Positions 12,401-19,279 are shown, counted from the first letter of the stretch. The stretch: 64,000 nucleotides of DNA from Candidatus Obscuribacterales bacterium (GCA_965228855.1 CBDDIJ010000003.1:2720001-2784000); one strand, 5' to 3'. Numbers and translations are program-made. The notes: a model not told the origin generated them from the sequence alone.

Positions 12401-15400
12401 GATTACGTAGACAGGCGTAAAGTGGAGTTCAGGGACTGGCAGGCTCGAGGCACCGCCGATGGCGTCACGCCTTCTTTGAAAAACAATCCGGAACTGAAGT
12501 CAGCAATCGATTCAGTCGCCATCGACACACTGGCTACACACCATCGTGCCGATCCATCGTTGCGTCCCTATTATCGCTTCTCCTCCGACGAAATTGCCGC
12601 TCGCAAACAACAATCCGTGCAAGCGCTGGAGCGTCTAAGCGCAGAACTCAAGCCTCAAGGCACGGACGTCGCCAACCATCGTGAGGGGCGAAGACTCATC
12701 GAGCGTTCTCAAGTCTCGGACCTACAGCAGAAACTTTTGACCGAGCTGCAAGCCGGTAACAGCACCGGCGCAAAAGAGCAAGCTGCGGGATTACTGCAGC
12801 GAATGGCGTCTTCAGAACCAGCTCGCTACGTCGAAGACGTGCGATTCATGCAAGAGCACAACCTCATTTCAACTGAACAGATTTCAAAAACAAAATTTGC
12901 CGAACTTCTTAAGGCTCCCCATGCGGAAGGGTCGCAAGCCCTTGCCGGACTGAGAGACCGCGTCTCGGCAATGGATGAATTTACCAAAGCGGCTGGTGAA
13001 GGTGATCGAGGACTGACGCTCGACAGACTTATGAAATCTCGCAGTGAGATTTTAGGAAGCTCCAGTTTCCGAAGCGACCCGGGACAGAAAAACGTTTTCG
13101 ATTTGCTTGTCGACAAACGCGCCGAAGTTGGCATTCTGAATCGTCTCAAGAGTTCCGGAAAGATATCAGCGGCCTGGCAGGTGTTCCCTTCCGAACCAGG
13201 CTCACCGGCTGATTCGATCGGCGCTGACTACCTTCTGGTAAACACGGAAACCGGGGACGTTCACTTTCTTGATGCGACCAGGAACAAAGAGAAGGATAAC
13301 GTATACCGTCTGCGCCGCGATGGGGTTATCCAGTACGAGAACAACTACTTCGAGCAGAATTCAGGATTCATAAAAATTACCGGAACAGGAGAGCAACCTA
13401 CCGAGTCCGAACTGAAAGCAGCTGATTTTCGAGTAAGTCTCGAATCACAAATCGAATATCTGACGCGTCAAAAAGCGACCTTCAACTTAAACACTACTCC
13501 GATTCCAGACGTTGTGGCAGACAAGTCCTCGGGCGCTGCGCAACACAACAAGGAACAAGTGGAGCGTTTTGTGAATTGGGCGAAGCGAGAGGCCGCTAGT
13601 GGTGGAGATATCCACGGAGATCTTCGAGAGATGGTCGGCGTCCTGGAACGCGGAGCGTCGCAATTCACCTCCATGGCCGCGCAGGAAGTCAGAACCCCCG
13701 GATTCGAACAAGCAGTGCGGACTCGAACGTCCCGCGAGATCGCGCGGTATCTCGCCGCACAGGCGAGTGCCGGTCAAACATACGGACCGCGCCCAGACGA
13801 CCGCGTTGGCGGAGAAAGCGACGTCAAAGTGCATAAGCAGCAGATGAAACTCACCGAAGGTGGTGCCATTCACGTCTCTCCGCCTATGGACCAGTTGCTC
13901 GCCGAGGAGCTCTCTAAGCTGAGCGGCGACCCGCTCAAGATAATCACTTCGCTCAATAAGCAGGAGATCATCGCGCTCAATCCGAGTCTCTTCAACAAAC
14001 CGCCCTTCGAGGGCAAAGGAGCAAAACAGCTAAAAGCCGAGATCGAGAGAGCCTACGCCGCTGACAGACAAGGTCCCGTCGGTAAGCTCGTGGAAAGGCT
14101 GACATCCAAGCTGTACGACAAAAAGAGCGTGATTCTGAACGGTGGCGCGGAAGGCACCGGTCCAAGAGTCATCGACAATACTGTTCTCAGTGGCTTGCGC
14201 GGCACAAAAACAGACTCACTGCTTGACCGCAAACCACCACCGAAACCAGAGAAAGCCGCGCCACCGCCGGCGGAGGTTTTCGGCAAATCGCTTCCCCAAG
14301 CATCAGTTGATCTTAAGGCGACGCTCAAGGGCATCGCTGAACCCACATCGCTCGGCAATACCACAGACGCCACCGTAGCAGAGTGGATGAATGAGATGGC
14401 GAACGACCCCAAAATGACAGAGAAATGGGGACCTAAAGAGCTCGATGCCTTCAAGAAAATCGCAGAGAAATATGCTGCGGGCGACGCCGCGGCGGTCCAA
14501 CAAGTTCATGATTATTTGAAGCTGCCGGAAACCTCCCCCCAAGGGGATGGCGCAACTACCGACAGAATAACGGAACTCGCCGAATCGCCTGCAGTAGAAA
14601 TTCCGCGAGTACCCTCGCCGATCGGTCCTGAGCGAATGAATAACTTCAGAGATTTGCTCGCCGGTCTCAACAATCTGACTCACGAGCAGTTTATCAATGA
14701 AGCGACTAAAAAAGCGCAAAGTGCTCTGTCGCCGGATGTTTCCAGACCGAGCAGGCTCGCGTTTATGCAGGCTGATATCGCGACCGCAGAGGTCGATTCA
14801 TTGAAGCCAGGCGAGTCAGAACTGGTTCTAAGGAAAGGTAATGACGCTCACAAAATCGTTTCCTTCGATGCTGCAACTTCCGAGTTCGTCACCACAGACG
14901 GTGCCAGGTTTTCAGCGAAGGAGGTCAAGCTAGAGGTTCGCTTGGGCAAAGGTACATCCAATACCCAAGCGGCAAGGGAATCGCTGACTCGCGCTCACGA
15001 GCTGGCAGATTTAATGAGTGGAAAAGCCAAACAGGGCGCACAAGCCCAGGCCGAACGCAATGCAATTCGCTCTGCGTTCGAGGGCACTAGAGTCACATCC
15101 AGCGGAGACATGGCTGGAAATCACGTCGCGGATAAGGTTCTCACACTGGGAGAATTCGAGTTCCAGAGCCGAAGACAAAAGGTGGAGCTCACCACGGCCG
15201 GTGTCAAATTCGGTGGCAAGGAAACGCGTCCCTACGAGCAACTCGTCAAGGAAACTTTGCAAGACAAACGAACAGAACTCGACCGTCTGGAGAAAGAACG
15301 CGAGCGCGCCAGAGCAAGTGACGTGGCCGAGCTGCAAGAGCGCATAAATGTCTTGAAAGAGCAAACCGCAGACCTGGAACAACTGGCCAAAGACGTACAT

Positions 15401-18600: not shown

Positions 18601-19279
18601 AGTCGGCAACGGTTCGAGCGCTCAACAAGTGGCATCAGAAGCGCTTGTTCGGGTAAATGCATTCAGAGAAGCGCTTAACGGAAACAAGCCGGAGGAAGCT
18701 GCCCGTCAAGCAACCGCTGAATCTGCCCGCAGACTCTTTCAGGAAACTCGCGGACCAACGGTCGAAGGCTCAGGAACGCGAGTCGCAGAGCGCGTCATCC
18801 CGATTGGAGCTCACGAGTTCAAAAGCTCGAGAATAGAGGTATCCCTCTCTGAGAGTGGTGTCAAATTTGGTGGCGACAAATTGCTGCCGTACGATCAACT
18901 CGTTAGAGATACTCTTCAAGACAAGGTAAACCATCGAGACCGATTGGTGGCAGACGAGAATACGGCAAAGAAGGCGGAGGTCGCGGAACAGATCAAGATT
19001 CTCAACGAACAAATTGTCGACCTTCAGCATCTCCGAGACAATTTGCACCGTCCGGGTACGACGACGAGGTTGATGGAAACCATCGGCAAACACGCCACAC
19101 CTGCCGAAATAGAAAAGTTGAGGGTTGAAATTGCAGCTGGTCGAGGTGGTGCGTTGAAGGGGACAGTTGCCAGAGCAGGAGCCTATGCGATTGTGGCAGG
19201 TTTTGTCACCAATATGCTCGCCAATGGTCAGACAGGCAGCAATGACACCATAAAATACGCGACGACCAGCAGCCGCTGA
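15632..19279 (+). CDS. Giant modular protein B (1215 aa): papain-fold toxin-like domain, beta-hairpin repeats, conserved C-terminal module; putative effector/toxin
   Basis: Starts 3 nt after the stop of protein A. NCRAC at 16154-16168, GHV at 16568-16576, IDAQ at 16616-16627. The C-terminus is homologous to that of protein A. Confidence 0.8.
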   Translation: MVADKAQTTIPNDNQGDEVKPPANDNRARFVDEFLSSRPGTVSDKAAAGADSGAVIQPAVDAETVNRNLSALDQTLRANGVESAQLRAVRERFAQKQVDGSLPTDLAPINDIVKALAQKGADGALPTQTRDVMLRLISANLDEKVDLITPQNFKQKTDRPIFNRENLQYGEADINCRACTASYIVNESLSERALMREFDKLLEKVELGKGAASRLNVPLENGLPRMTATLFQKLHGDAFEGIAGEKYSQKEVRDFHSQYKTVQKYIENGLQQSGFKGSNLPGGDLKPGKWPPKEPGFYVLEHGSSNTSGQVSGHVTAAFVDKDLQIHRIDAQNPNHRTREWPITQMYKLELGEESSERIGNKIDGSKTYEVTNSDSTIRDITISDGKAIGFTDVDGREFNRTVEGKWQSVGGKVAEAPFKDVEYLGRTGGFKFTYENYSVTELPDGTAKLDVQNRAIVRDGKPIIANGQEVKLADVIDSIKRTAQGRILIEFKDKSVSMVDPPDAKQPPGEVSKVGVTEKTLFFLDGTSGTTNGGSLDSLIVSKINAEVERGSTLEAAVSKLTSPGVDDAVAERRSRIAKEAQQAKLPSDPTSLAAYDRVLSELNLTEGDIKKAGEIVERSRKHLEAGVLVDKKPVDARQALDLAILENMPDPLKGDGKNMRLASAQKKLREFGEFRSDLNLLRVPEPTLRNFLQSQELIDRYSGQLISAFDQNRPTSKSSARSRDSRIAYNFVSNPEQLKAAEELLPKLKQTGGDRIGLADAFAMVNVPGLSENPELAVDLHIRSGYIRNQLSNYRGSNGRQSWSAQDYLKLAKILKDDGKSATANITEIEKAERKLVEDERQAKAEAEKTGQAVEVKDATAKSDSSQATPTRQSAPSEPPLEASRIMMFKSKIAGLEDMPAGERLAKCLSAAQETLFNDVARNNRLIFKATKLQASETDALKPGESQLTFSKNGKPLNVVSLDSTGLPAYITADGTKIPVSECTVEIKVGNGSSAQQVASEALVRVNAFREALNGNKPEEAARQATAESARRLFQETRGPTVEGSGTRVAERVIPIGAHEFKSSRIEVSLSESGVKFGGDKLLPYDQLVRDTLQDKVNHRDRLVADENTAKKAEVAEQIKILNEQIVDLQHLRDNLHRPGTTTRLMETIGKHATPAEIEKLRVEIAAGRGGALKGTVARAGAYAIVAGFVTNMLANGQTGSNDTIKYATTSSR

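Follow-up and report, generated by a model that had tools for sequence, protein, structure and literature searches.

A shared C-terminal module, predicted to hold a disabled zincin fold, on interchangeable carrier proteins of Candidatus Obscuribacterales

Why should two adjacent genes whose products have nothing else in common end in the same module of about 340 residues, closed by a hydrophobic helix? The question is raised by a window of 64,000 nt of DNA from a Candidatus Obscuribacterales bacterium (GCA_965228855.1 CBDDIJ010000003.1:2720001-2784000), a member of an order of large-genome, non-photosynthetic relatives of cyanobacteria whose lifestyle is poorly known. The window contains three large open reading frames (ORFs) in the same orientation, here called A, B, and C, and B starts only 3 nt past the stop of A. 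A sequence-only reading of this DNA had proposed that A and B share their C-terminal module, and pairwise alignment bears this out: A aa 1742-2077 and B aa 882-1215 have 129 identities over 338 positions (38%, E 3e-63), and the rest of A and the rest of B give no alignment (next best E 2.0). We conclude that the module and the cassette of genes in which it lies are real and undescribed. The two genes and their module copies are as follows.

9395..15628, + strand: gene A, 2077 aa, of the cargo-carrier type
14612..15094, + strand: N-terminal half of the module in A (aa 1740-1900), predicted zincin-like fold with a beta insert, HExxH not intact (putative pseudoprotease)
15131..15397, + strand: middle of the module in A, with a small beta sheet (aa 1913-1946) and an antiparallel coiled-coil hairpin (aa 1947-2001)
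15512..15628, + strand: end of the module in A, with a basic and Gly-containing lead-in, the conserved hydrophobic helix (aa ~2040-2060), and a short polar tail
15632..19279, + strand: gene B, 1215 aa, without the N-terminal AN domain of A and with only the module in common with it
18269..19279, + strand: second copy of the module (B aa 880-1215)

The conserved blocks named by the sequence-only reading were located at A1801/B941, A1936/B1076, and A2037/B1175, and its identities of 16/23 and 16/25 stood up to a recount. The Pro/Ser/Thr-rich linker that it placed ahead of the module does mark a domain boundary, although the enrichment is modest (25% and 32%, against 18% in the whole proteins). 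Codon-position identities between the two modules are 53, 64, and 30%. As the third positions are saturated, we rejected a recent repeat as the source of the pair; the third-codon identity of 30% indicates an old duplication held at the protein level, and, judged by its codons, the module pair is an old duplicate under protein-level constraint. The A-B region is not an assembly artefact, since contigs from two public runs (two studies), either of which is possibly the source of this DNA, span window positions 8000-27900 with zero differences; no strain variants were seen in run X4. Orthologues of A are found at the same locus in genomes G002, G005, and G006, and those of B in G002 and G005; there is none at the G006 locus.

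The terminal helix (A2043-2060) was described as unusually well conserved, and among 33 full-length modules it is indeed the most conserved segment, with a mean pairwise identity of 46% compared to 16-35% in the other eight segments. Tyr2047 is found in 32/33 modules, Ala2055 in 30/33, and Pro2073 in 31/33. The tail does not end in Y.xTSxR, as had been thought; the family tail is instead (Y/F/H)-(A/V)-P, with the Pro in 31/33 modules. The helix is only marginally hydrophobic, its best Kyte-Doolittle mean over 19 residues being 1.74 in A and 1.35 in B, and the mean net charge is +2.6 before it and -0.4 after it, with positive charge on the upstream side in 30 of the 33. We predict that this helix inserts in the membrane. 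The statement that the module belongs to no named family agrees with our searches, which gave no significant Pfam or NCBIfam family (generic coiled-coil matches only) and no match in the PDB by sequence (best E 2) or in the ESM Atlas.

There are exactly two copies of the module in the host genome, those of A and B, and with so few it is not a general sorting tag; the genome-wide sorting or export signal that had been considered is rejected on this count. In addition, a hydropathy scan (no dedicated signal-peptide predictor was run) finds no hydrophobic N-terminal signal stretch in A or B, and the charge lies before the helix and not after it. Among the functions that had been offered, an assembly domain or a membrane-insertion element fits best, either being putative.

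A profile built from nine module sequences returned 25 matches from 1.84 billion representative proteins, 24 of them at E<=1e-10; the other, P0027 of the HlyD family (E 1e-4), was dropped as a probable coiled-coil artefact. Within the order, 13 of 107 genomes match, 11 of them strongly and the host among them; weak matches in G085 and G095 (E ~1e-3) were left out of module counts. A profile of the N-terminal half matched 17 of 103 other genomes of the family and none of 297 genomes sampled elsewhere in the class; a protein search with the same profile found two proteins only and weighs little. As far as searched, the module is found only in this bacterial family. Its position is fixed at the C-terminus: of 41 carriers examined, 40 have no more than 11 residues beyond the match (3 of them being cut by contig ends), and only G029c, where the N-terminal half is internal, departs from this. 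We note that in two carriers (L168:5729-8989 and L170:173-2257), the beta-insert part of the N-terminal half directly follows the first hydrophobic helix; this part may be able to move independently.

A structure model of the whole module (pLDDT 68) found no match with Foldseek, and another fold search gave generic hairpin matches only. Since no informative fold had been found for the whole, the N-terminal part was folded separately. Judged from match titles, 11 of its top 12 and 36 of 50 VIA matches were of the zincin type, and SprT/IrrE entries recurred among matches from the viral library. An active protease was rejected as the identity of the module, because none of 36 modules retains an intact HExxH. 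Partial motifs of this type are present in 11 of 12 divergent modules, and a series can be drawn from HELGH in the zincins of the carrier bodies, through HELGQ, HEMSQ, HQLHH, and HQLHQ in divergent modules, to HELAD in A and NAFRE in B. The divergent modules match the A/B-type module with HHalign probabilities of 97-99%; a direct profile comparison of the A/B module with the body zincins was negative. We predict from these models that the N-terminal half is a zincin fold that has been catalytically disabled, which would make the module composite, a feature that the sequence-only reading did not anticipate. The coiled-coil hairpin itself gave generic helical-hairpin matches only.

What the module is attached to is quite different from one carrier to the next. 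In A, the order is acidic leader, AN domain, weakly hydrophobic helix, beta-rich region, HExxH zincin, domain with a nuclease-like motif, and C-terminal module. Neither A nor B matches a Pfam family; four domains were nevertheless delimited in their bodies.

9761..11005, + strand: AN domain of A (aa 123-537), an unannotated N-terminal domain found in many partner proteins
11780..12109, + strand: zincin-like domain of A, HExxH intact (aa 867-871)
13127..13594, + strand: restriction-endonuclease-like domain of A, a motif call from which the fold label is inferred
16079..16720, + strand: papain-fold effector-like domain of B (Asn-Cys176, His314, Asp330)

The Asn-Cys, His, and Asp triad of B is invariant in 6/6 sequences and fits the 'NC, H, D' signature given for Tox-PL1 in the part of Zhang et al. 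2012 that we draw on (PMC3482391). This domain has no Pfam match, and its nearest clusters by ESM features are YopQ (0.90), Gln_amidase (0.88/0.87), and SpvD (0.87), which we treat as a lead only. The bodies of the 41 carriers examined contain 23 HExxH motifs; in 12 aligned copies of the body zincin, His, Glu, and His are invariant, and the library matches are weak (SprT at E 0.08; DUF6782 in 4/12). The nuclease-like domain of A has no Pfam or NCBIfam match and keeps two conserved acidic positions in 8/8 aligned copies; from this motif, we infer a restriction-endonuclease-like fold. Domain scans of 22 and 20 carrier proteins, most of which had no match at all, found DSP phosphatase (Tc-R-P, E 2e-7 to 5e-7), AvrB/AvrC (E 7e-11 to 9e-9), PRTase-CE, FHA, and SprT-like domains.

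The bodies are exchanged behind the module. In the A orthologue of G006, residues 1173-1625 are replaced, in part by B-like sequence, the nuclease-like domain is gone, and the locus has no B. The modules of G109a and G110a fall in one clade with 100% support in a module tree from a quick search only, with long branches, and their bodies have no similarity; in P0011, a G110a-like body is attached to a module of the G109b type. Unrelated bodies reuse the module in several genera. The swapping was not foreseen by the sequence-only reading, and the domain content suggests that the interchangeable bodies are effector-like. The carriers open with acidic, low-complexity leaders (window positions 9395-9550 and 15632-15740), several of which have by eye a short Leu-Ser-x-x-x-Trp-like motif; such a leader could be an export or chaperone signal.

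The third gene shows that the carriers do not stand alone.

19550..31180, + strand: gene C, 3876 aa, giant partner without the module
9242..31224, no strand: the A-B-C cassette as a gain/loss unit, missing from the related locus L068

Pfam identifies two FHA domains and HEAT repeats in C. It also has a domain that we call cc (aa 598-895), found in 48 of the 107 genomes of the order, and a Gly-rich hydrophobic segment (aa ~1186-1209), which follows cc in 17/17 C-type proteins examined. Among the 10 other genomes with strong module matches, nine match a C orthologue, one of these being a contig-end fragment, and the miss (G113) is a genome that is 77% complete; conversely, all eight other genomes with a full-length C carry the module. 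At 23 of 24 carrier gene ends, the next large ORF, within 410 nt, is another partner or carrier or C itself. The lone exception is followed by a large ORF of another kind, which we take to be an isochorismatase-family hydrolase. By these 23 of 24 gene ends there is no evident immunity gene among the large ORFs, small ORFs being possible in the larger gaps. In L068, whose flanks have 92% nucleotide identity with those of the window, positions 9242-31224 are absent and the flanks are joined by 63 nt; nothing in the L068 genome matches the module. A, B, and C are thus gained or lost as one block, again something that the sequence-only reading had not described. A TPR gene at 32499-33404 is also missing from L068, by a second, independent indel (window 32279-33359).

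The AN domain extends the picture beyond the module. It matches 26 of the 107 genomes, with up to 12 matches per genome and three in the host, and it ends in a weakly hydrophobic helix (A aa ~505-519) followed by basic residues. As B has no AN domain, the module is the only detected link of B to the system. A search for related loci with the AN domain as query found nothing. In most of 20 stretches, chosen because AN and cc matches lie close together, AN partners flank other cc genes. The partners of these other C-type genes carry different tails, of which 17 of 19 end in a hydrophobic helix compared to 44 of 750 background ORFs, and from this we take the module to be one version of a general C-terminal handle. 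In G001:C99 (L173 / L186), AN (647-1060) and cc (3197-3468) occur together in a single ORF that fuses carrier with core and is truncated at the contig end, with a length of at least 3585 aa.

Several further loci of this kind were seen. A second cassette of the host genome (C2:1247578-1259092; L022, L023) pairs a 2575-aa cc/HEAT gene with a 1198-aa AN partner in tail-to-tail orientation; by eye, the cargo of the partner is kinase-like, and its shorter C-terminal module is different but also ends in a hydrophobic helix. Another host AN partner (C3:542879-548116; L020), of 1745 aa, has long coiled-coil repeats and the shorter module; there is no cc gene in the surrounding 20 kb, and by eye the same flanking genes adjoin a full cluster in G012. 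An ORF of 8541 aa at C3:2827646-2853271 of the host encodes a hydrophobic, Gly-rich stretch along with two HExxH zincins of the type seen in the family, and two more giant ORFs (C2:1683273 and C5:792954) have the same zincin. An 843-aa carrier (L172:10534-13065) with AN, Pro-rich repeats, the short module, and no apparent cargo represents a minimal form. A cluster that by eye is Tad-pilus-like adjoins the G109 cassette (L053:5038-11558), and none was seen beside other cassettes. Apart from all these, the window encodes at 37288-40491 (- strand) a 1067-aa protein with a weak collagen-like match and internal DNA repeats near 39082-39375, whose relatives have 863-882 aa.

How, then, does the system compare with those already described? 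No description of these proteins was found in open-access text, exclusive of subscription papers and supplements, and a term search of the main text of a giant-gene preprint (10.1101/2023.11.21.568195) found no mention of the lineage. Polymorphic toxin systems, in the portion of Zhang et al. 2012 (PMC3482391) used here, are likewise multidomain proteins that keep a constant part while effector domains are exchanged, as seen here in the G006 swap and in the unrelated bodies on one module clade, and the domain pool is also in common (papain-fold Tox-PL1 signature, zincins, nuclease-like domains, and phosphatase). Unlike the systems in that portion, ours places the constant part at the C-terminus with a hydrophobic helix at the end and the cargo in the centre, often with more than one cargo domain, so that an N-terminal trafficking and C-terminal toxin layout is not found; nor is a linked immunity gene evident, nor does any leader domain on their list occur, and a giant FHA/HEAT gene is the partner instead. 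Pfam and NCBIfam gave no match in A, B, or C to signal peptide, PAAR/VgrG, WXG/LXG, TpsA, or PVC leaders. The A-B-C system thus appears to work like a polymorphic effector system, yet falls outside the class on layout, immunity, and leaders.

For the docking logic, the nearest precedent, as an analogy only, would be anthrax lethal factor: domain I, which binds the translocon, is similar to the zincin domain IV of the same protein according to the parts of PMC4196590 and PMC4838128 that treat the domains. In both cases, the part that docks onto a distinct delivery protein would be a zincin-catalytic-like domain; unlike domain I, the module domain lies at the C-terminus, contains a beta insert, and has the hairpin and the membrane helix after it. 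Our searches found no sequence or structural match between the module and lethal factor, and no likeness of C to protective antigen in Pfam or NCBIfam. The effector-associated domains (EADs) of NTP-dependent conflict systems, in the sections of Kaur et al. 2020 (PMC7159879) that we use, are similar in being a common non-enzymatic domain on diverse effectors beside a core gene, in the use of inactive peptidases as binding domains, and in lineage-specific paralogues. They are, however, of small size and for the most part helical, and the core component has them too, whereas the module measures 340 aa, includes a membrane helix, and does not occur in C, and the cassettes showed no NTPase core gene.

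Our preferred reading, which we hold tentatively and a little short of an even chance, is that the module is a constant docking and anchoring handle for cargo, and that C inserts in a membrane and delivers the cargo to another cell. By analogy with domain I of lethal factor, the disabled zincin fold would act as a peptide-binding handle; the coiled-coil hairpin and the last helix would pack with the Gly-rich hydrophobic helices of C, so that each cargo protein could dock onto the giant C through its module, and C, once inserted, would pass the cargo into the other cell. The target may be a distant organism, probably a eukaryotic microbe, because there is no apparent immunity gene and several cargoes resemble host-directed effectors. 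The stability of the A cargo over three genus-level orthologues counts against rapid polymorphism. The proposal has a bolder form, which we regard as doubtful: that Obscuribacteraceae have their own, so far undescribed delivery system, with a giant cc/FHA/HEAT membrane translocon and shuffled multi-effector carriers whose C-terminal handle descends from an inactivated copy of the zincin that they carry as cargo, used against eukaryotic microbes without any known injection apparatus. Less likely than docking and delivery, though to be taken seriously, is an intracellular conflict or defence complex. A and B would be tail-anchored by their last helix in the inner membrane of the producer, their cargo lying in the cytoplasm; C would serve as a phospho-regulated (FHA/HEAT) sensor scaffold, and the module would recruit effectors and hold them in check until a trigger lets them act on the cell itself or on an invader. 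The positive charge ahead of the helix suits a cytoplasmic body, effectors held inactive need no immunity gene, FHA domains occur in C and in some carriers, PRTase-CE and DSP cargo are known from conflict systems, and patchy, block-wise loss suits defence loci too. The lack of a signal peptide points the same way, as does the host genome (95% complete), which has no match to FlhA/SctV, VipB, WXG100, or phage sheath, that is, no flagellar/type III, type VI, type VII, or sheath marker; this absence counts for the preferred reading too. Inactive peptidases are peptide-binding domains in such systems (PMC7159879, in part). Against such a complex, no NTPase core gene accompanies C, which lacks the module, unlike EADs that pair core and effector; the Gly-rich, marginally hydrophobic helices of C would seem to resemble toxin insertion segments more than resident anchors, and AvrB-like and YopQ/SpvD-like cargo suggest foreign targets.

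Three further explanations are improbable to different degrees. The module could be a C-terminal signal for a type IV secretion coupling protein, with C as co-substrate or chaperone, and this we consider distinctly unlikely. Type IV substrates such as Bartonella BID and Xanthomonas XVIPCD proteins do have a constant C-terminus behind variable upstream effectors, and in this our carriers are alike; a terminal membrane helix is not a known feature of BID or XVIPCD signals. The module, unlike these, has no library match (neither BID nor XVIPCD gave a Pfam or NCBIfam match in it, and neither is among the fold-search matches listed) and is linked genetically to C. The host genome has four matches to PF02534 (VirD4/TraG family), none in the window, and none to PF03135 (VirB4-type); its pilus/type II secretion ATPase genes also lie outside the window. 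Vampirovibrio, a relative, has been proposed to pass effectors to algae by a type IV secretion system of conjugative type, as set out in part of PMC4451040. A tag of the PEP-CTERM or GlyGly-CTERM kind, cleaved for surface display, seems very improbable: the Gly/basic lead-in, single hydrophobic helix, and short C-terminal tail recall one, and the host has an exosortase-family gene, but this lies outside the window, more than 1 Mb away, and about 300 aa of folded domain are conserved alongside. Such tags come with an N-terminal signal peptide, a basic cluster after the helix, and many carriers per genome, none of which applies here, and there is no NCBIfam sorting-domain match. We give least credence to a relic of tandem duplication, an ordinary membrane anchor with no shared function. 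The genes are in tandem, and in the quick tree, A- and B-type modules form a genus-specific clade; however, 38% protein identity has been kept despite saturated third positions, and a relic would hardly be found on unrelated bodies in several genera, with its helix the most conserved part and so tightly linked to C.

The cassette is built on three unannotated domains, cc, AN, and the module; with their profiles the system can be searched for, and they provide defined parts for testing. It inverts the usual layout of polymorphic toxins, and the module offers a traceable case of an enzyme domain, as predicted, decaying into an adaptor. A family-wide cassette of swappable carriers and giant partners points to a hidden conflict arsenal that may serve for predation, to manipulate a host, or in defence. 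Should delivery prove real, it would add a route for the transfer of large proteins between cells.

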